Notes: generated by a model from the letters alone, not told the origin. Positions 1,551 to 20,805 are shown, counted from the stretch's first letter. The stretch is 21,066 bases of DNA from a candidate division WOR-3 bacterium (GCA_039801885.1 JBDRVN010000029.1:1-21066); one strand, 5' to 3'. Numbers and translations are program-made.

Positions 1551-2627
1551 TTACTCAATAACCTCGCCTTCCAAACTTCCCTTTGCCCTTAAATATAATA
1601 TCAACCCGTTAGAAAAATCTTTACTTAAAATATGGAGATTTTCCAAAAGAAATAGAGCACTTTTATAATCTTTCTGCTCAAAATATTTCAAGGCATCCGC
1701 ATAATATCCTTTTGTCTTCTCTTCAACCTTGGGCAAGGTATTAGTCAATTCTTTTTCTAAATAAGTTTCAATACCCCTTTTCAATTCCGAAAGATAATCA
1801 TTTAACTTATTGATATTGATACTAACTTCGCTTAATGCCTTTCTTTGTGCCTCTTCTTTGGAATTGCTTACACCTTTTCCTTCGGAAGAGGATATTTTAC
1901 CAATAATATTTCCCTTCTTATCTTTTAAATAAATAATATAATATGCCTTTATTGTCCAAAGCGGTCCACCTAATGACGCCAGTTTACTTACTGTCTCATA
2001 AGAAGGCGTACCGATAATTTGGGCAAAATATTTCTCATTATCAATAATAAAATTATTGCCTTCTAAAATTGATTTAATCTCCTCATAATAATCGGAAGAA
2101 ACCCTTACCCGATAGATCTCTTCATTCTCTTTTAATAGGTTAACAAGATTTTCCTTTTCATAAATCTTTGCCAAATTTTCATTAAGCATTTTCAAAAACC
2201 TTTCTGATTGAATTCCACCAAGGATATAATACTTTTTCTCTCTCTTATTCTCATATTTATCCCGAACCTCAAAGTATTCACTCACCTTATCAAGAACATT
2301 CTTAATCTCTTTCGCTACCAAATCTTTTAGAATAAAATCAAACTCAGTCTTAACCGGTGGATTAAGGCGGCTCAAATATTCACTTGTTAAATTATAGAGC
2401 AAAGCACTTAACTCTTCCTTACATTTTGCTTCGGCATCACTAAGAGAGGTTTGCGAGACCGAAACAGTTGTAAAATAACCTTCACTACCAATTCCCAATT
2501 TCTTAGTCGGCAATTTTACCCAATCTGGCTCCTTTTTTTGAGAAACTTTTTGAGCACAAGAAAAATCTAACTTCTCACAAAAGATGAAAAGAAGAAAAAG
2601 GAAAATAATAAAAAAAACCTTTTTCAT
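1551..2627 (-). CDS. Hypothetical exported protein/lipoprotein (LPP20-like N-terminus), 358 aa
   Basis: Start re-assigned to ATG at 2627 (MKKVFFIIFLFLLFIFC), preceded by GGGGG SD; the track start at 2660 lies inside the promoter. Signal peptide with Cys, then EPDWVK motif; short TPR-like helix pair at the C-terminus. Confidence 0.7.
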   Translation of the reverse strand: MKKVFFIIFLFLLFIFCEKLDFSCAQKVSQKKEPDWVKLPTKKLGIGSEGYFTTVSVSQTSLSDAEAKCKEELSALLYNLTSEYLSRLNPPVKTEFDFILKDLVAKEIKNVLDKVSEYFEVRDKYENKREKKYYILGGIQSERFLKMLNENLAKIYEKENLVNLLKENEEIYRVRVSSDYYEEIKSILEGNNFIIDNEKYFAQIIGTPSYETVSKLASLGGPLWTIKAYYIIYLKDKKGNIIGKISSSEGKGVSNSKEEAQRKALSEVSININKLNDYLSELKRGIETYLEKELTNTLPKVEEKTKGYYADALKYFEQKDYKSALFLLENLHILSKDFSNGLILYLRAKGSLEGEVIE

Positions 2628-2650
2628 AATACCCCCGTATTTAATTTTAA

Positions 2651-2679
2651 AATATAGCAAAAAATATTTAAAATGTCAA
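2651..2679 (-). promoter_or_regulatory. Sigma70-type promoter for the lipoprotein-capA-hutH operon
   Basis: On the minus strand: TTGACA-17 nt-TATATT with TG extended -10 element. Confidence 0.7.
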
Positions 2680-2769
2680 TTATTATCAAAATTAAAAAAT
2701 TCGTAATAAATTATATACGACTCATTTATTAAACTTGGCAACTACTTTCCACCTATTTACTATTTTTCC

Positions 2770-2797
2770 TTGACATTTCAAAATTTTTGAATATATT
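2770..2797 (+). promoter_or_regulatory. Divergent sigma70-type promoter with no long ORF downstream
   Basis: TTGACA (2770-2775)-16 nt-TATATT (2792-2797); a TATAAT follows at 2798-2803. AT-rich context weakens the call. Confidence 0.45.
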
Positions 2798-2919
2798 TAT
2801 AATAGTTAAAATTAGTTTTTAGGTGTTTAATTGATGAATTTGGTTATTAGAATGAATAGAAACCTAAATTATATTAATAAAATGGAAAAAAATTACACAT
2901 AAGGGAAGGAGAAACCCCG

Positions 2920-3096
2920 TTGAGGGAACGGTACAGGGAATTGCTCTATTGTATTAATAATAAAAATCTTATTAATGCGAATAATAATAGCTCTATTAAC
3001 GATAATAATTATCGCTTTATTAGTAATTATAGTGAAATTACTATTAACTGCCTTAATAATAATTCCATCTTTAAGAATTGTGTAGGGCTTAAATGA
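2920..3096 (+). other. Low-complexity AAT/ATT-rich tract containing overlapping small ORFs
   Basis: TTG ORF 2920-3096 (58 aa, Asn-rich, AAGGAG SD 8 nt upstream) and ATG ORF 2975-3085 (36 aa, hydrophobic); degenerate 12-nt units ATAGCTCTATTA / ATCGCTTTATTA / ACTGCCTTAATA. Confidence 0.3.
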
Positions 3097-3653
3097 CCTC
3101 TCGGAGATGGACTATAGGTCTTAGATACTCGATAAATAAATAGCAGATTAAATTAAAGCAAGATATAATAAATAAGACTTATGGAATAATAATTTATAAA
3201 AACTTCATGCATTTAGATAAAAAGAGTGCTGATAACAGAGTTTATGACAAATCACACCCAGATGATTACTAACGACTCCGGCAATTAAAGCGAAATCAAT
3301 ATATAAAATTACTCCAAAAGTGTGAGAGTTACCAAAATAAATAATGACGAGTTTAATGTGTGAGAATTCAAAAAATCGTTGAGATAATTGATAAATAAAG
3401 AAATTTATTTTATGAAGTAAAAAAAATTCTTTTCCAAAATTGGCTTAAGAAATCCTTAGAAGAGAGAGTTATTTGGTTCATAATCAAAAGGCAGAAGTAA
3501 GTTGGTTAAGAATTTCTGCAAAATACTGGTAAGTATTTTTTAAGATTATTTAAATAATTTCAAACTATTTTTATTTACCTTGATATCTTTATTAATTATT
3601 AATCTGGTAACTATTTTTAAACACATTTACTAAAAATATTGAGTTTGTAATAC

Positions 3654-3682
3654 TTGACTTTACAATAAATTTTTTTTACACT
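3654..3682 (+). promoter_or_regulatory. Sigma70-type promoter for the leader RNA/fibre operon
   Basis: TTGACT-17 nt-TACACT; predicted start ~3689-3690 coincides with the first base of the closing stem of the structured leader. Confidence 0.65.
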
Positions 3683-3689
3683 AAATTAA

Positions 3690-3890
3690 CCAATGGAACC
3701 TGGTAGGAAGATGACGGAGTGGAGAATACGGATAAGTGCCTGTTCTTGGGTCAGAAAAGGTAAATATGACTTAAGGACCTGGAAAAAAGAAATTATAATC
3801 TATCCTGCGCTGGGCACTTCTGGAATTTTAAAATAAGGGTGGAATAAGGTTCTATTGGCTCTACCTTTTTCCCCCAGAAAAAAGAGCCAA
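3690..3890 (+). ncRNA. Unassigned structured 5' leader RNA (candidate cis-regulatory element or sRNA)
   Basis: Nested stems 3690-3701/3847-3858 (12 bp), 3734-3741/3812-3819 (8 bp), 3742-3753/3767-3778 (12 bp); competing hairpin 3855-3862/3883-3890. Confidence 0.55.
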
Positions 3891-3904
3891 AAAGAGAGGC
3901 AGTA

Positions 3905-6553
3905 ATGAAAGTATTATTAAAAGTTATTTTGTTAGTAATTGTATTTCAGTTTTTTATTATAATCCTTCCAACTGCTTGGGCTACAAAAGATGTGGTAATC
4001 AATTCTCAAACTTCAATAATTAGTCCTCAAGGACAATCAAACACGACTGATGCACCGGAAGCAATAGCAATTCCGCGAATGTTCAATTATCAAGGCAAAC
4101 TGACTGATGCAACAGGTAATCCAGTAAGAGATAGCACTTATTCAATAACCTTTCGGTTCTTTAAGGTTTCCAGTGGTGGTACCGCCTTTTGGAATGAAAC
4201 ACAAAATGTTCAGACTAATAGTGGACTTTTTAATGTCCTTTTAGGTTCACTAACTCCGATTGATTCCATACCGCAAGATGGTAACTGTTACCTTGAGATG
4301 CAGGTGAATCCCAATCCAGCGATGACACCAAGGATCAGAATTGTCAGTTCCGCTTATGCCTATCTATCAAAAAAAGCTGATAGTGCTGGTTATGCGGCAA
4401 GTGCTCCAATCATAAGACCAATCACACCACCAGTTTATAGTGCTGAGATTAGAGATACAACGATTATTGCTGGTAAGATAAAAGATGGTGCGGTGACGAT
4501 GGCAAAGATAGACCAATCAGGTGCAACAACTGGGCAAGTGATAAAGTGGACCGGAACTGCTTGGGCACCGAGGAATGATAGTGCTGGTGGTCCGCCCACA
4601 GGTCCAGCAGGCGGTGACTTGACTGGGACTTATCCCAATCCGACGATTGCCAATAATGCGGTCAATTCGGCAAAGATTGCTGACCGTGAGGTTACTAATG
4701 CTGACCTTGCCGAAAATGCGGTTACCACTTCAAAGATTACTGATGCTAATGTTACTCTGGCTAAAATCAGTCCGACTGGTTCTTCAGCAGGTCAAGCGAT
4801 TATTTCTACTGGTTCTTCAACACCGCCGACTTGGGGAAATGTAGCGCCTGGTCCGCACAATCATCTTGGCGAGACTTGGACAACTACTACCATTGACCGG
4901 GGCCTTTTGATGAAACTTGACCGTAATACATCATCCATAATTAACGGATTAGTTGATTCAGTGCTCAATGCTGGAACTGGTTTTGCTTACGGTGCCCAAT
5001 TTTATGTTAGTGGCACTGGCACCGGTCCCAGATATGGTATCTATACCCAAGCATCCTGCCCATCAGGCTCGGGTAGTGGTGCGACGGGTATCTATAGCAG
5101 TGGGTCGAGCGAAGGGACCGGAATAGTTTATGGTGGTTATTTTTATGCTGGTGGTAGTGGCACTGGAACTAAATACGGTGTCAATAGCTTTGTGGCAGGT
5201 CCTAGTAAAATGTACGGCGTTCGTAGTTCCGCTTCACTTTCTTCGGCGGCGACTGATTCAGGCTTTGGAGTTTATGGTTCTTGTTCTAATAGTGGTTCGG
5301 GCAAAACCTTTGGCGGATTCTTCAATGCTGGTGGTTCTGGTGCGGGTGCGAAATATGGAGTAATAAGTAGCGCTTCGGGTTCATTGTCAGATACTGTCTT
5401 CGGTGTCTACACAACAAGTTCAAACTCAGGTTCTGGTCCCGGTTATGCCTTCTATGGAAAAACTTCAGTTCCCTCTGGAAATGGCTGGGGCTATGGTGGC
5501 TACTTCAATGTCGCTGGTTATAGGAGTAGGCTATATGGAGTTTATAGCGATGTCTCGGCTTCAGATGTTTCTACCGACCCAGCATATGGATACTACGGAC
5601 AGGTTTACCACTCTGGTAGCGGTTATGTGTACGGCGGTAGTTTTGAGGCAACCGGCACCGGTACCGGCGAGAGGGTGGGTGTTCGTGGCTCGGCATACAT
5701 ATCATCGGGTTCAAGTTCAATTTATGGTGTATATGGTTATGCTACACACAGTAGTGTTGGTGCTGCATACGGCGGTAGGTTCAGTGTATCTGGTGGCACT
5801 GGCATTAGATACGGCGTTTATAGCGACGCTAATGGTTCAGGTTCAGTCTATGGGGTCTATGCAACTACTTACAATTCTTCTGGAAGTGGCACTTCATACG
5901 GCGGTTATTTCAAGGTTACTAATACCACTGGTAATAATACCGGCGTTTATGGCGAGGCTTCTGGTTCAAATTCTAACGGAGTTTATGGAACTGCAAGCGG
6001 GACTTATTCTGCTGGCGGATATTTCAGTGGAAATTATTGGGCCGGTGTTTTTGAAGGCGATGTGCATGTCACTGATTTTCTCAGGGTAGAAGGAGATTGT
6101 TGGATAGGCGGAGATTTTTATGTAGTTGGGTCAAAATCAGCTGTGGTTAAAATTGATGAAAACGACCAGCGACTGGTCTACTGTCAAGAAAGCCCGGAAG
6201 TCTGGTTTGAAGATTTCGGCGAAGGTCAGTTGAGAGATGGTAAAGCAGATATTCAACTCGACCCAACCTTTCTTAAAACCGTAACTATCTCCGAAGAACA
6301 TCCAATGAAGGTATTTATCCAACTGAATGATGATTGCAATGGTGTCTACGTTAAACGAGGAAACACCGGTTTTTCGGTGGTTGAACTTAATAATGGCAAA
6401 TCAGATGCCCATTTCACCTATCGGGTAGTAGCAAAACGTAAAGGATATGAAAATGTGCGATTAGAGAAAATAGAGCCAGATATAAATCCTAATGAAATTA
6501 TACCCGAAAGTCTGAAATACCGCGTCAAAATGAAGGTACGGAGAAATAAATAA
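3905..6553 (+). CDS. Secreted fibre/adhesin-like repeat protein (tail-fibre-like), 882 aa
   Basis: Signal peptide (…PTAWA); N-terminal IPRMFNYQGKLTD domain; GDLTGTYPNPTI motif and AVTxAKI decad repeats; long Gly/Ser-rich YG(V/G)Y repeat region; C-terminal ESPEVWFEDFG…VAKRKGYE domain resembling phage tail protein C-termini. Confidence 0.8.
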   Translation: MKVLLKVILLVIVFQFFIIILPTAWATKDVVINSQTSIISPQGQSNTTDAPEAIAIPRMFNYQGKLTDATGNPVRDSTYSITFRFFKVSSGGTAFWNETQNVQTNSGLFNVLLGSLTPIDSIPQDGNCYLEMQVNPNPAMTPRIRIVSSAYAYLSKKADSAGYAASAPIIRPITPPVYSAEIRDTTIIAGKIKDGAVTMAKIDQSGATTGQVIKWTGTAWAPRNDSAGGPPTGPAGGDLTGTYPNPTIANNAVNSAKIADREVTNADLAENAVTTSKITDANVTLAKISPTGSSAGQAIISTGSSTPPTWGNVAPGPHNHLGETWTTTTIDRGLLMKLDRNTSSIINGLVDSVLNAGTGFAYGAQFYVSGTGTGPRYGIYTQASCPSGSGSGATGIYSSGSSEGTGIVYGGYFYAGGSGTGTKYGVNSFVAGPSKMYGVRSSASLSSAATDSGFGVYGSCSNSGSGKTFGGFFNAGGSGAGAKYGVISSASGSLSDTVFGVYTTSSNSGSGPGYAFYGKTSVPSGNGWGYGGYFNVAGYRSRLYGVYSDVSASDVSTDPAYGYYGQVYHSGSGYVYGGSFEATGTGTGERVGVRGSAYISSGSSSIYGVYGYATHSSVGAAYGGRFSVSGGTGIRYGVYSDANGSGSVYGVYATTYNSSGSGTSYGGYFKVTNTTGNNTGVYGEASGSNSNGVYGTASGTYSAGGYFSGNYWAGVFEGDVHVTDFLRVEGDCWIGGDFYVVGSKSAVVKIDENDQRLVYCQESPEVWFEDFGEGQLRDGKADIQLDPTFLKTVTISEEHPMKVFIQLNDDCNGVYVKRGNTGFSVVELNNGKSDAHFTYRVVAKRKGYENVRLEKIEPDINPNEIIPESLKYRVKMKVRRNK
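4646..4768 (+). repeat. Four ~10-aa coding repeats (IAxxAVTxAK)
   Basis: IANNAVNSAK IADREVTNAD LAENAVTTSK ITDANVTLAK. Confidence 0.8.
4988..6058 (+). repeat. Degenerate 11-17-aa coding repeats, core (Y/F/T)G(V/G/I)Y, roughly two dozen copies
   Basis: e.g. GTGPRYGIYTQA, GTGIVYGGYFYA, SDTVFGVYTTS, SSSIYGVYGYA, GSVYGVYATT; recurrent TATGG/TACGG in the DNA. Confidence 0.85.
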
Positions 6554-6575
6554 CAAGAACTTTAAAGGAGGAGTT

Positions 6576-7151
6576 ATGAGTAGAATATGGAATTTTTTAC
6601 ATGAACAGCCACAAGGGATATTTATTTTTTTCTACTGCTTAATTCTTACTGCTTTCTGCTCACTATCTTTTGGACAATACCACTGCGATTGGAATGTTTT
6701 TGATGCCAGTGGTGGATTTTTAAGTTCAACTGATTTTCAAACCAATACTTCATTTAGTCAACCAGCAATCGGTTATTTAACCACAACCAACTTACAAGCA
6801 TTTATCGGCTTCTGGCAAGTTGGACCATTAGTTGGAATTGAAGAATCGGAAGAAATGCCAAATCTCATTAAATTAGAAACAAAACTCTTTAACCCCCAAC
6901 CCAACCCTTTTACCTATAAGACACGGATTATATTCTCCCTTAAGAATCAAACAAATGTTAAACTTTTCATCTACGACTTAACCGGCCGAGTTGTAAAAAA
7001 TCTAATTAACGGTAATATGAAGCCCGGAGTTTACTCAATAGACTGGCGAGGCGACGATAATCAGAGTAAGAAATTGGGAAAAGGTATTTACTTCCTGAAA
7101 TTTGAGACCGAGGGTTACCAAAAGATAAAAAAACTACTTCCTGTCCGATAA
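6576..7151 (+). CDS. Small secreted protein with C-terminal FlgD-Ig/T9SS type A-like sorting domain
   Basis: AAGGAGGAG SD; signal peptide ending SFG-Q; ~50-aa domain DWNVFDASGG…SQPAIG…IGFWQ; CTD PNPF…IYDLTGRVVK…WRGDD…GIYFLKF. Confidence 0.85.
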   Translation: MSRIWNFLHEQPQGIFIFFYCLILTAFCSLSFGQYHCDWNVFDASGGFLSSTDFQTNTSFSQPAIGYLTTTNLQAFIGFWQVGPLVGIEESEEMPNLIKLETKLFNPQPNPFTYKTRIIFSLKNQTNVKLFIYDLTGRVVKNLINGNMKPGVYSIDWRGDDNQSKKLGKGIYFLKFETEGYQKIKKLLPVR

Positions 7152-16870: not shown

Positions 16871-17350
16871 ATGATTTTTTATTCAATAAATGAAGTATTA
16901 GAAATGGCAATCCAAATTGAGAAAAGTGGTTATCAATTTTATTTAAACTCAAAAGAAAAAACTAATGACAATAACTTAAAAGAACTTTTTGATTTCTTAT
17001 CAAGTGAGGAATTAAAACATATGGAAACATTTAATAGGATTAAAAACCGATTAAAAACAACACCTTATAACTTACCTTTTGATTGGGAAGAAGTAAAACT
17101 ATATTTAAAAGTAATCACCGACTCTCATTTCTTTGCCGGTGAAGATAAAGTTTTAAATTTAATGGAAAGAGCCAAAAATGAGAAAGAGCTGATTGACTTG
17201 GCAATTGCTTTTGAAAAGGAGACATTGCTCTTTTATTATGAAATATTAAATTTAGTTGCCCAAGAAGAAACACCTGTGGTGTTAAAGTTAATTAATGAAG
17301 AGAAGGCACATATTAAAAAATTAGAAACTATAAAAGGAGAAATTAAATGA
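16871..17350 (+). CDS. Ferritin-like (rubrerythrin di-iron domain) protein 1
   Basis: AIQIE…FY…EELKH / AIAFE…FY…EEKAH duplicated di-iron motifs; no rubredoxin CxxC domain; AAGGAGG SD. Confidence 0.88.
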   Translation: MIFYSINEVLEMAIQIEKSGYQFYLNSKEKTNDNNLKELFDFLSSEELKHMETFNRIKNRLKTTPYNLPFDWEEVKLYLKVITDSHFFAGEDKVLNLMERAKNEKELIDLAIAFEKETLLFYYEILNLVAQEETPVVLKLINEEKAHIKKLETIKGEIK

Positions 17351-17847
17351 AAGAAATCTTTCAATTAGCAATCAATTTGGAAAAAGAAGCACTCTCTTCA
17401 TATCTTCGTTTTGGACACCAGATAGAAGACTTAAAAGGGAAAAACCTTTTTATCCGTTTAGCAATGGATGAATTTGAACACATTGAGATCTTAGAAAGAG
17501 AATTAGAATATTTTGAAAAAGAAAAAAAATTTAAAGATGTAGAAATCCCTTTAACGGAGATTGAAAAAACGGTTATCAATTTAAAACCCTTATTACCCAA
17601 AGAGAAAAAGGTATCGGATTTGAATGAATTAAATATCTTACAAATGGCTTTATCCTTAGAAAGTAAAAGTATTGATTTCTATCAAACACAAGAGAAAGAG
17701 AGCAGCGACGAGATTGCTAAAAAAATTTGGCAAAGATTAAAAGAGATTGAAGAAGGTCATTATAAGTTAATTCAGGCAGAAATCGATTCTCTAACAAAAA
17801 CTGGTTTTTGGTTTGATTTTCGTGAATTTACTTTAGAAGAATATTAA
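17347..17847 (+). CDS. Ferritin-like (rubrerythrin di-iron domain) protein 2
   Basis: AINLE…DEFEH / ALSLE…FY…EEGH; aromatic tail GFWFDFREFTLE. Confidence 0.88.
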   Translation: MKEIFQLAINLEKEALSSYLRFGHQIEDLKGKNLFIRLAMDEFEHIEILERELEYFEKEKKFKDVEIPLTEIEKTVINLKPLLPKEKKVSDLNELNILQMALSLESKSIDFYQTQEKESSDEIAKKIWQRLKEIEEGHYKLIQAEIDSLTKTGFWFDFREFTLEEY

Positions 17848-17874: not shown

Positions 17875-18366
17875 ATGGGAGAAACATTAACTCCCTTAGA
17901 AATATTACAAAAGGCAATAAAATCGGAAATTGAGGCTTATCAATTTTATAATAAATTGGAAAAAGTGGCAGAGAATAAAGTTTTAGAGAAGAAATTAAAC
18001 TTCTTAAAAAAAGAAGAGAAAAAGCATGAGAGATTATTACGAAATATCTTTAAAAATCAATTTCCCAAAGAAAAAATCAAATTACCAGAAAAAGGTTTTA
18101 CTCCTTTACCGGCAATTGATATGATTGAAAAATTATCTTTAGAATCTCTTTTAGAAGCAGCAATGGAAGCGGAAGAGGCTTCCGAAAAATTCTATCGGGA
18201 AAATTCAATATTAATTAACGATGAAAATAGCAAAAGATTATTGATTTATCTTTCTTCCATGGAAAAGTCTCATTATCAAATTTTAAAGACCGAATATGAT
18301 TTATTAACCAGTTTCACTTCTTATGAGGCATATAAAAAATTCTCCTTAGAACATTTAGGACCATGA
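17875..18366 (+). CDS. Ferritin-like (rubrerythrin di-iron domain) protein 3
   Basis: AIKSE…FY…EEKKH / AMEAE…FY…MEKSH; tail HLGP; AAGGAGG SD. Confidence 0.88.
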   Translation: MGETLTPLEILQKAIKSEIEAYQFYNKLEKVAENKVLEKKLNFLKKEEKKHERLLRNIFKNQFPKEKIKLPEKGFTPLPAIDMIEKLSLESLLEAAMEAEEASEKFYRENSILINDENSKRLLIYLSSMEKSHYQILKTEYDLLTSFTSYEAYKKFSLEHLGP

Positions 18367-19526
18367 AAAGAATATATCTGGACCACCAAGCAACCACTCC
18401 TATCCATCCAGAAGTTTTATCCTTAATGGAAAATCTACAAAAAGAAGTATTTGGTAATCCTCAAAGTTCCCATTCTTTTGGTTTTGAAGCAAAAAAATTA
18501 TTAGAAGAAGCAAGAGAAAAAATTGCTTCCCTTTTGAATGTTTCGCCTACCGAAATCTATTTCACTTCCTCCGGTACTGAAAGTAATAATTGGGCAATTA
18601 AAGGAATTGCCTTTGCCAATCAAGATAAAGGCAACCATATTATCGTTTCAGCAATTGAACATTCCTCAATAATTCAACCAGCAAAAAGGTTAGAGAAAAT
18701 GGGATTTGAAATCACCTATTTACTGGTTGATAAATACGGCACTATTGATTTGGATGAGTTAAAAAAGAAGATAAAAAAAGGAACAATTCTTATTTCTATA
18801 ATGCATGCCAATTATGAGGTAGGCACAATTGAGCCAATAAAAGAAATCGCTGAAATAGCCAAAGAGAATAAGATTATCTTCCACTCTGATGGTGTGGCGG
18901 CGGCTGGTCAATTAAAAATTGATTTAAAGGAATTAGGCGTTGACCTTTATACTATTTCTTCCCATACTTTTTATGGTCCAAAAGGTGTTGCCTTATTATA
19001 TATCAAAAAGGGGACAAAAATCCAACCATTGATTGAAGGTGGAATCCAAGAAAATAATCGACGAGCAGGAACAGAAAATTTAATTGGTATTATTGGTATG
19101 GCAAAGGCTTATGAAATTGCTCAAAAAGAAAGGGAAGAAAGAAAAAATACATTAGAAAGATTAAGAAATATATTGATAGAAGAATTACCTAAAAAGATTG
19201 AAAATGTTTATTTAACCGGTCATCCACAAAATCGTTTGCCTAACCATGCCAGTTTTTGTGTGTATTATGTGGAAGGTGAAGCAATGGTTTTATATTTAAA
19301 TCAATATGGAATCGCCTGCGCCTCTGGTTCAGCCTGTTCTTCTAAACAGTTAAAAGCGTCTCATGTTCTTTGGGCAATGGGCATACCTCCGGTTTTAGCC
19401 CAAGGCTCTATTGTTTTCACCTTAGGAATTGATAATAAAGAAGAAGATATCAACTATCTTTTAGAAGTATTTCCATCGATCGTAAAAAAACTAAGAGAAA
19501 TTTCACCATTGTATAAAACTTCTTGA
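18363..19526 (+). CDS. iscS: Group I cysteine desulfurase (IscS/NifS) homologue, non-canonical active site
   Basis: IYLDHQATT, GNPQS, FTSSGTESNN, IEHSS, RAGTEN, SGSACSS; but SSHTFYGPKG instead of SxHKxxGPKG. Confidence 0.85.
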   Translation: MKRIYLDHQATTPIHPEVLSLMENLQKEVFGNPQSSHSFGFEAKKLLEEAREKIASLLNVSPTEIYFTSSGTESNNWAIKGIAFANQDKGNHIIVSAIEHSSIIQPAKRLEKMGFEITYLLVDKYGTIDLDELKKKIKKGTILISIMHANYEVGTIEPIKEIAEIAKENKIIFHSDGVAAAGQLKIDLKELGVDLYTISSHTFYGPKGVALLYIKKGTKIQPLIEGGIQENNRRAGTENLIGIIGMAKAYEIAQKEREERKNTLERLRNILIEELPKKIENVYLTGHPQNRLPNHASFCVYYVEGEAMVLYLNQYGIACASGSACSSKQLKASHVLWAMGIPPVLAQGSIVFTLGIDNKEEDINYLLEVFPSIVKKLREISPLYKTS

Positions 19527-19558: not shown

Positions 19559-20287
19559 ATGGATAGATTATTTTTCTTACTCAGTGCCTTAAATTTTGTT
19601 TTTTTAATTTCTTGTTCCGAAGCACCAAAAATTGAATTTAAAAAAGGAAATAAGAAAGTCTTGGTTGAAATCTTTACTCAAGCAGGTTGACCTTTTTGTA
19701 TGGCTGCGGAGCAGTCTTTATTAAATTTAAAAGAAGAATATCAAGATAGTTTATCAATAATTGCTTATCATTTAGGTGACGAATTCCAAAACGAAATATG
19801 TGAAAACCGTTATAATTTATACCAAATAAATCGAATACCAACCGCAGTCTTTAATGGAAGATATAAGGTCTTCTTAGAAGAAGTGTCAAATATTGACTCA
19901 ATCTATAACTACTATATTTTAAATACCCTTTCGGAAAGCACTTATTATAACATTCTTTTAAATCAATTAAATAACAGCACCATAAATCTTAAAGTTATTT
20001 CTAATAGCGAAAATCCAACTCTCCAAGAATATCGGTTATTTGTCTTTCTTACCGAAGATAGTGTGTTTTCGGAAATAGCTCCCTTTTTTGAAAACAATTG
20101 GGTTTTTAAAGAAAATCTTTTCCCCTTAGAAGGTATTAATTTTAATGCCACGATTTTTGATACCTTTGATACTACTTTTAATATTTCTTTAAATCAAAGA
20201 AATCTAAATGTTGTTGCCTTTATCCAAAATGTTAATAACTTAGAAATCATTCAAGGTAAAAGTCTAAAATTGGGAGGTGAAAGATGA
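19559..20287 (+). CDS. Probable selenocysteine-containing thioredoxin-fold (Omp28-like) lipoprotein, 242 aa, U44-P-F-C47
   Basis: MDRLFFLLSALNFVFLISC (lipobox) SEAPKIEFKKGNKKVLVEIFTQAG[TGA 19688-19690]PFC, in frame with the track ORF 19700..20287; IIAYHL, IPTAVFNG (cis-Pro), FLTED and NVVAFIQN motifs match my recollection of Omp28-related proteins. Confidence 0.85.
19691..19725 (+). promoter_or_regulatory. Candidate bacterial SECIS element
   Basis: GGCTGC-GGA-GCAGTC hairpin (19702-19716) starting 11 nt after the TGA; G-initiated apical loop 17 nt from the TGA; weak AU-rich lower stem. Confidence 0.7.
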
Positions 20288-20805
20288 AATTAAGGAATTT
20301 AATTTTTATCTTAATTTTATTTTTCTTTATTTATGCCCAAGAAAAAGCGGATACTTTAAAATCTTATAAGAAAGCACCTAGTTTTTCTCTATATAATATT
20401 AATAAAGAAAAAACCTATATTGATTCCCTTTTAGGAAAAGGACCAATTTTTATTAGTTTCTGGGCATTGTGGTGTAAACTTTGTATCCAAGAACTTGATG
20501 CCTTTAAAAAGATTTATGACCAATACGAAACATTAGGGCTTAAAGTATTAGCTATATCTGAAGATGGACCAAGGGCAATAAATAATGTGAAATCCTTTGT
20601 GAAAGGGAAGAAATGGAAATACGAAATCTTATTGGACCCTGATGGAAAAGTGAGAGAACTTTTTGGTGTTGGTTCAACGATGCCCACAAGTTTTATTCTT
20701 GACAAAAAGGGAAACATCCGTTTAGTTTCTCGGGGTTATAAAAAGGGCGATGAAAAGAAATTTATAAGAGTTATCGAAGAAATAATAAATGAAGAGAAAA
20801 AGTAA
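20284..20805 (+). CDS. TlpA/ResA-family exported thiol-disulfide reductase
   Basis: Signal peptide (…IYA-Q), APSFSL, FWALWCKLCIQE, AISED, MPTSFILDKKG; GGAGG SD, ATGA overlap. Confidence 0.92.
   Translation: MKLRNLIFILILFFFIYAQEKADTLKSYKKAPSFSLYNINKEKTYIDSLLGKGPIFISFWALWCKLCIQELDAFKKIYDQYETLGLKVLAISEDGPRAINNVKSFVKGKKWKYEILLDPDGKVRELFGVGSTMPTSFILDKKGNIRLVSRGYKKGDEKKFIRVIEEIINEEKK

Follow-up and report, generated by a model that had tools for sequence, protein, structure and literature searches.

The window analysed here is a stretch of 21,066 nucleotides from a candidate division WOR-3 bacterium (GCA_039801885.1 JBDRVN010000029.1:1-21066). It carries a gene for a homologue of the type I cysteine desulfurases NifS and IscS in which the lysine that binds pyridoxal phosphate (PLP) as a Schiff base and the arginine that binds the substrate carboxylate are both replaced, and in which the catalytic cysteine of the mobile loop (Cys325) is kept. 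The same losses are found throughout its nearest relatives, and the gene is under strong purifying selection. By analogy with the IscS of Archaeoglobus fulgidus, this Lys-less protein is probably a non-catalytic desulfurase homologue that works with the scaffold protein IscU, in which Cys325 would ligate the cluster, hand over sulfur, or both. The gene and the two codons on which the argument turns are as follows.

18363..19526, + strand: gene of the Lys-less, Arg-less NifS/IscS-like protein (387 aa; T202, V351, A179, Y151; loop Cys325 kept)
18966..18968, + strand: ACT codon of Thr202, at the position of E. coli K206 (from alignment, codon read)
19335..19337, + strand: codon of Cys325 (E. coli Cys328) in the mobile loop SGSACSSKQLK (Cys in 82/82 and 120/120 aligned relatives)

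The open reading frame (ORF) is uninterrupted and full length, from an ATG start to a TAA-type stop. Its product is a type I NifS/IscS homologue of the class V aminotransferases (Pfam PF00266, Aminotran_5, 268 bits over residues 4-366). The best NCBIfam model, TIGR03402 (NifS), scores 495.6 bits, which is under its curated equivalog cut-off of 530.75, and the IscS equivalog model TIGR02006 gives 377.5 bits against a cut-off of 643.2. Residues were mapped by alignment to E. coli K-12 IscS. In this alignment Thr202 occupies the position of the Schiff-base lysine (K206), and Y151, A179 (within D176-G-V-A179) and V351 stand at the positions of N155, Q183 and R354 respectively. In E. coli IscS, Arg354 binds the substrate carboxylate and Gln183 contacts the cofactor. 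Retained are C325 (C328 in E. coli), H100 (H104), D176 (D180), S199 (S203) and H201 (H205). The corresponding motifs start at residues 199 (SSHTFYGPKG), 148 (HANYE), 176 (DGVAAAG), 349 (SIVFTLG) and 321 (SGSAC). A first-pass annotation, made from the sequence of the window, had described the four replacements, the intact SGSAC with C325 and the full-length frame; all were found where it had placed them, and the alignment with E. coli IscS that it proposed bears out the residue map.

Conservation of these residues was then followed in the relatives. The 19 closest ones (P0002-P0020), which are 82-93% identical, all have H-T at 201-202, Y151, A179 and V, L or I at 351, and the same residues recur in independent assemblies. 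Among the 120 best database matches, column 202 never holds lysine (Q, T, S, A, R, G, L or M instead) and column 351 never holds arginine (V, L or I instead). The same 120 proteins all retain C325, H100, D176, E152 and N75-N76, and K207 is present in all but 3. Of the cofactor-pocket residues, H100, D176 and E152 show no variation, and conservation of T237 reaches at least 90%. Between four genomes of the same genus (6 pairs) the ratio of nonsynonymous to synonymous substitution rates (dN/dS) is 0.055-0.107, which resembles the values of the neighbouring ferritin-like genes described below. These data demonstrate that strong purifying selection acts on the Lys-less gene, in answer to the dN/dS test suggested at first pass. 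That annotation had also held that a lysine in all close homologues would point to a sequencing error; none of the 120 nearest has one.

The annotation had further spoken of four coordinated losses, and this was overstated. The changes at K206, R354 and Q183 are family-wide. The N155 position is only relaxed in the family, and Y151 is local: it is specific to this lineage, the same column being S, N, G or P in the wider Lys-less group. In addition, the Lys-bearing NifS paralogue of the same genome has Ala at the Gln183 position too (DAVAS), so that the change at Gln183 is not diagnostic by itself.

Predicted structure agrees with this picture of an intact fold. The AlphaFold2 (AF2) model has a predicted local distance difference test (pLDDT) value of 89.2, and low confidence is confined to the loop 226-237 and the Cys loop 324-330. 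Its best matches in the PDB are 4eb7, 4hvk and 4eb5, the IscS-IscU structures of A. fulgidus, with template modelling (TM) scores of 0.91-0.93; against IscS and NFS1 structures the TM scores are 0.92-0.94.

According to excerpts of two publications (PMC8918507, PMC7585200), A. fulgidus IscS has Asp199 at the lysine position and is devoid of desulfurase activity, binds pyridoxamine phosphate (PMP; 4hvk) or PLP (4eb5), and provides its loop cysteine as a ligand of the [2Fe-2S] cluster on IscU D35A. The same excerpts give sulfide as the proposed sulfur source of this system and describe M. acetivorans IscS1 as likewise devoid of the lysine. What the first-pass annotation had stated of A. fulgidus IscS (no lysine, inactive, Cys ligand) agrees with these sources. 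A. fulgidus IscS is the only characterised Lys-less IscS, and the part consulted of the 2022 review treats it as an unusual archaeal case (PMC8918507).

The WOR-3 protein resembles A. fulgidus IscS2 (AF0564; 4eb5, 4eb7, 4hvk; D199K variant 4r5f) in its type I fold, with 44-47% identity (phmmer E 1e-113), in the replacement of the Schiff-base lysine and of R354 (Leu in A. fulgidus), in the Ala at Q183, in the loop Cys followed by a basic residue three positions beyond (SACSSK), and in the pocket His and Asp. The motifs of the archaeal protein are SSNDIYGPKG, DATAS, HGTLLLTLG and GSACSSK. It differs in having Asp instead of Thr at the lysine position, Asn (HANNE) where the WOR-3 protein has Tyr151, and Gln where the latter has K331. 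It is also archaeal, whereas the WOR-3 gene is bacterial, does not adjoin IscU in its genus and has three ferritin-like genes upstream. This kind of protein is already known from A. fulgidus IscS2, to which the WOR-3 gene adds one member. Since the cofactor pocket is kept, PLP or PMP held non-covalently, as in A. fulgidus, remains likely.

Judged by its sequence, the protein is no rare oddity and belongs to a very large cross-phylum family. From the WOR-3 order 41 genomes were sampled, the source genome among them; a match was obtained in 40, and examination covered 30 best-hit loci. The lysine is missing from 28 of these, and in G035 and G004 the best hit has both the lysine and the arginine. 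Other phyla were covered by a pattern scan in which each species was represented by a single genome; it gave at least 594 confirmed relatives among at least 599 stretches; the patterns were derived from the Lys-less alignment, and the sample is therefore biased towards the Lys-less group. Counts for other phyla given here and below cover the best 80 loci of these relatives. The main hits are devoid of both the lysine and the arginine in 80/80 loci, and Cys325 is kept in all 82 aligned proteins, two of which are canonical second copies. According to record titles, the family is present in Dehalococcoidia, Anaerolineae, Nitrospirota/Thermodesulfovibrionia, Aminicenantes/Acidobacteriota and Archaeoglobaceae, and further in Omnitrophota, Planctomycetia, Desulfomonilaceae and Coriobacteriia, with Chloroflexota also represented.

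An exhaustive search was also made against representatives clustered at 50% identity, and the 150 best hits were classified by the two residues. Both were present in 132 and both absent in 17; the lysine was absent and the arginine present in 2, and the reverse was found in 1 (P0122). The latter protein keeps the Schiff-base lysine, has Leu at Arg354 and Ala at Gln183, and clusters with Lys-less proteins in trees; on its sequence it may be an intermediate form. Finally, 75 Lys-less and 125 Lys-bearing rows were compared column by column; the rows are related and partly hand-picked, and the comparison is descriptive only. The best separating columns are K206, R354 and Q183, followed by G234 (I/V in Lys-less rows) and by changes of the Cys loop (E334 to K, A331 to K/R, P335 to A). 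Lys-bearing rows have R354 in 124/125 and Q183 in 118/125 cases.

Phylogenetic analyses bear on whether the lysine was lost once or several times. In a FastTree tree of 200 rows and a quick IQ-TREE tree of 76 rows, the A. fulgidus-type group stood apart from the main Lys-less group, suggesting an independent loss. This idea was dropped after two further analyses. In the approximately unbiased (AU) test a single clade of all 40 Lys-less rows was not rejected (p-AU 0.877), the constrained tree being 50 log-likelihood units better than the free tree. When 12 trait columns were masked in a 50-row tree, the two Lys-less groups came together, with weak support, in a set that also included 4 Lys-bearing rows.

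The gene neighbourhood of the relatives points to IscU. Among the loci from other phyla, 68 of 80 have an IscU gene directly downstream of the Lys-less gene; among the Lys-less WOR-3 loci this holds for 17 of 28. Both counts are in keeping with the scaffold partnership that had been proposed at first pass. In the source genome (G000; 1.56 Mb in 70 contigs, 91% complete) the Lys-less gene is on contig C29 and the single IscU/NifU-type scaffold on C33. The latter has intact CGD, C and HC ligand motifs, passes TIGR03419 and is unlinked to either NifS homologue. The two genes do not adjoin in this genus, so that we infer their pairing from the relatives.

The same genome was searched for canonical desulfurases, as the first-pass annotation had advised. 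A canonical NifS is encoded on contig C50 (L001:1432-2607, - strand); it scores 535.7 bits with TIGR03402, above the cut-off of 530.75, shows the motifs ISGHKIHAPKG, HSNNE and SPVRFSLG, and is about 51% identical to the Lys-less copy. It has Ala at the Gln183 position and HKIHAPKG replacing HKxYGPKG, and it sits beside a signal-peptidase-II-like gene without adjoining IscU. A distant SufS/CsdA-like class V protein is encoded on C4. SufBD (PF01458), A-type carrier (PF01521), TusA and DsrE2 were not found in this genome, which is 91% complete. In two other genomes of the order, G008 (96% complete) and G015 (94%), the Lys-less protein is the sole type I homologue.

Compared with canonical NifS/IscS proteins (E. 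coli IscS, 1p3w; the 9wep series; the C50 NifS), the Lys-less protein shares family and length, 41-55% identity, and the motifs GTESNN, HxS, the D of DAxQ, GPKG and SGSAC. It differs from them by the loss of K206, R354 and Q183, by its altered Cys loop and by missing the NifS equivalog cut-off. The closest solved chain by sequence is the Lys-bearing 9wep (E 1.3e-125). This entry belongs with 9wer, 9wew, 9wf8, 9wfb, 9wfe and 9wfy to a variant series of a Lys-bearing "cysteine desulfurase", in which the aligned variants are Lys to Leu, Arg to Val, Gln to Pro and Asn to Arg, at the positions lost in the Lys-less family. A literature search on the 9wep entries found no paper. The minimal iron-sulfur (MIS) system, composed of MisS and MisU, is also comparable: here too a desulfurase homologue and an IscU-type scaffold are present, and SufBD and A-type carrier were not found (the chaperones HscA/HscB are outside this comparison). 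In contrast to the WOR-3 protein, which has lost its catalytic residues, MisS is described as a cysteine desulfurase in the part of the source consulted (PMC13066941).

Taken together, these observations suggest the following mechanism. The protein keeps the NifS/IscS fold and a dimer-type architecture; the cofactor pocket is largely retained, as is the Cys of the mobile loop. With the Schiff-base/general-base lysine and the substrate-carboxylate arginine both lost, it could most likely not form persulfide from free cysteine. It would instead act as a platform for an IscU/NifU-type scaffold, by analogy with A. fulgidus IscS2, with Cys325 on its flexible loop as cluster ligand and/or sulfur donor to IscU, and the retained pocket would hold a structural PLP or PMP. 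Sulfur could come from environmental sulfide or from the canonical NifS in the source genome; in many other lineages the neighbouring TusA and DsrE2 carriers are candidate sources. According to an excerpt of PMC13015791, H2S can supply sulfur for iron-sulfur (Fe-S) synthesis in IscS-deficient E. coli. The three erythrin-like di-iron proteins encoded upstream may, as their synteny suggests, supply iron or guard the assembly step against O2 or peroxide.

Several points weigh against the proposal that the protein is a non-catalytic IscU partner. The same genome has a canonical NifS, so that Fe-S assembly there can be explained without the Lys-less copy. IscU is encoded apart from the Lys-less gene in the source genome and across the genus. 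The retained cofactor pocket leaves room for a cofactor-dependent role, and the part given to the ferritin-like proteins is read from gene order alone.

Other readings of the family were considered in the light of its neighbours and loop residues. Neighbour clusters were defined over 110 loci and one representative was annotated per cluster. Apart from IscU, TusA recurs in 45 loci, an Rrf2-type regulator in 27, a DsrE2-like protein in 19, glutaredoxin in 12 and a fusion of ferredoxin-thioredoxin-reductase-beta (FTR-beta) and rubredoxin in 11. In other phyla the Rrf2-type regulator and TusA usually precede the Lys-less gene (e.g. L073:4270-4998), which is often accompanied by the DsrE2-like, glutaredoxin or FTR-beta/rubredoxin genes. 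None of these five was found beside the Lys-less gene in this genus. The sulfur carriers and redox proteins of this list could be an indication that the protein is a persulfide relay only, in which Cys325 takes persulfide from another donor, here the canonical NifS and in other lineages TusA/DsrE2, for delivery to IscU or other acceptors, with no cluster ligation. The enrichment of basic residues in the Cys loop of Lys-less rows (K/R at 328 in 59/75, K331 in 66/75) would also suit such a transfer. We nevertheless consider this unlikely, given that TusA and DsrE2 were not found in the source genome and that the Cys is a cluster ligand in the only structural precedent. A relay and a platform for IscU are compatible with each other and not mutually exclusive.

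Coexistence of the two NifS types raises the question of regulation. The C50 NifS and the Lys-less copy are found in one genome, and a Chloroflexota metagenome-assembled genome (MAG) contig (L044) carries a canonical NifS-IscU pair (2442-4039) and a Lys-less NifS-IscU pair (5001-6579) in tandem, about 1 kb apart and on one strand. Such an arrangement would fit a Lys-less paralogue that is a regulatory pseudoenzyme, one that heterodimerises with the canonical NifS or competes for IscU and so tunes the sulfur flux. However, Lys-less proteins mostly come with an IscU of their own, and G008 and G015 are without a canonical type I copy, which makes a regulatory function improbable. At another locus (L104) a canonical copy lies 2 kb upstream of a Lys-less pair.

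It is very improbable that the protein is still an enzyme, in which non-covalent PLP/PMP or another lysine (K207 of GPKG, K328/K331) would drive transamination or an altered desulfuration. The invariant pocket residues, the PMP or PLP bound by A. fulgidus IscS and the nearly family-specific K331 are consistent with this idea; but K331 is also present in 17/125 Lys-bearing rows, Arg354 and Gln183 are lost together with the lysine, position 202 is variable (Q, T, S, A, R, G, L, M), and the D199K variant of A. fulgidus IscS also holds PMP, as stated in an excerpt of PMC8918507. That the lysine of GPKG has taken over from the Schiff-base lysine was rejected, as Lys-bearing enzymes conserve K207 just as well (E. 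coli K211), and some Lys-less relatives have L, N, Q, H or P in its place. Lastly, a decaying pseudogene or an assembly error, for which only the loss of catalytic residues speaks, is refuted by the relatives' residues and the dN/dS values, and further by the intact ORF, the recurrence in independent assemblies and the two base changes that separate ACT from a lysine codon.

The view of the first-pass annotation that the gene encodes a repurposed pseudo-desulfurase and is not decaying is thus upheld by the dN/dS values, by Cys325, H100, D176 and E152 being invariant while the lysine and arginine columns vary, by the IscU neighbours and by the structural match to A. fulgidus IscS. No specific support was found for the sulfur or selenium carrier that it had offered as an alternative. 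The genome does contain a match to SelD (selenophosphate synthetase; 320 bits) with one in-frame TGA (contig C23:825-1736, - strand; L126). The TGA is probably a selenocysteine codon and the organism appears to use selenium; nothing ties the Lys-less gene to SelD, and the selenium-carrier reading was set aside.

The distinctive local feature of the WOR-3 gene, as far as the sequence tells, is its apparent operon linkage with three erythrin-like genes, whose functional link to it is a lead. These genes lie immediately upstream.

16871..17350, + strand: erythrin/ferritin-like di-iron protein 1 (159 aa; Pfam Rubrerythrin, E 2.4e-9; stop overlaps the next start by 4 bp)
17347..17847, + strand: erythrin/ferritin-like di-iron protein 2 (166 aa; Pfam Rubrerythrin; C-terminal tail GFWFxxREF[ST]LE)
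17875..18366, + strand: erythrin/ferritin-like di-iron protein 3 (163 aa; Pfam Rubrerythrin; PDB 2fzf, E 6.5e-25; tail KKFSLEH[LI]GP)

The three are paralogues, and each keeps the E...ExxH...E...ExxH di-iron ligands; in protein 3, E18, E47, E48, H51, E100, E130 and H133 are invariant in 17 sequences. Genes 1 and 2 overlap by 4 bp, genes 2 and 3 are separated by 27 bp, and gene 3 overlaps the NifS-like gene in an ATGA, its stop lying over the ATG. In each of the four genus genomes that have the NifS-like gene, it stands in one block with the three ferritin-like genes. In two sister families the order is extended by IscU: three ferritin-like genes precede the Lys-less gene and IscU in L014 to L016, and two ferritin-like ORFs precede this pair in L017 and L018. 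A DsrE2-like gene then follows IscU in L014. Within flanks of 1.5 kb, ferritin-like genes were found at 9/30 WOR-3 loci, in three of five families. In other phyla, 13/80 loci have ferritin-like ORFs within 5 kb, and such ORFs are directly upstream in L041, L050, L059 and, weakly, L069. The arrangement with the Lys-less gene is seen in three WOR-3 families and again in Dehalococcoidia.

One could suppose from this recurrence that the trio and the Lys-less protein form one cysteine-independent Fe-S module, in which the di-iron proteins would give iron to a docked IscU, and sulfide or carrier persulfide would enter via Cys325. We hold this full scheme to be rather doubtful, and a rubrerythrin-type role as peroxide/O2 guard is equally plausible for the trio as that of iron donor. 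There is a precedent in the di-iron protein YtfE, which binds IscS and IscU and donates iron, as reported in an excerpt of PMC8117158. Like the trio, RIC/YtfE is a four-helix-bundle di-iron protein, and it is functionally tied to IscS and IscU (same excerpt); unlike them, it is hemerythrin-like, the trio being rubrerythrin/erythrin-like (PF02915). By this analogy YtfE is a precedent for an iron-donor role of the trio and not evidence of it.

The strongly conserved tails of ferritin-like proteins 2 and 3 follow the four-helix bundle, and the corresponding tails elsewhere are xVGP or xIGP (Aminicenantes) and HPSL[DN]GG (Dehalococcoidia). These tails may be docking peptides. Complex prediction with two copies of the NifS-like protein and ferritin-like protein 3 (score 0.00, 0.00; mark 0.32) speaks neither for nor against binding. 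A promoter/terminator scan gave site counts no higher than in shuffled sequence. In the literature, searched at the level of titles and abstract openings, no report of an erythrin-IscS operon was found, and a literature search found no paper that brings together WOR-3, iron-sulfur cluster and cysteine desulfurase. Downstream of the Lys-less gene, a gap of 173 bp is followed within 19700-20805 of the window by an Omp28-like ORF (Pfam 34.0 bits, cut-off 34.9) and a TlpA/ResA-like thiol-disulfide oxidoreductase with a WCKLC motif; this pair is conserved in the genus.

Two questions about strict anaerobes are touched by these results: the way in which Fe-S clusters are made without sulfur from cysteine, and the identity of the iron donor. 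The results bear on the first in that IscU, in many uncultured bacterial phyla, is usually paired with a protein of the A. fulgidus-type design, under strong selection, and that the Lys-less protein is the sole type I homologue in some genomes; this breadth of the family in bacteria is worth carrying forward. For the second, the recurrent operon with di-iron ferritin-like proteins offers a concrete candidate for the iron-delivery step. If this is true, the trio would be a dedicated iron donor for the ancestral-type iron-sulfur cluster (ISC)/MIS machinery of anaerobes.

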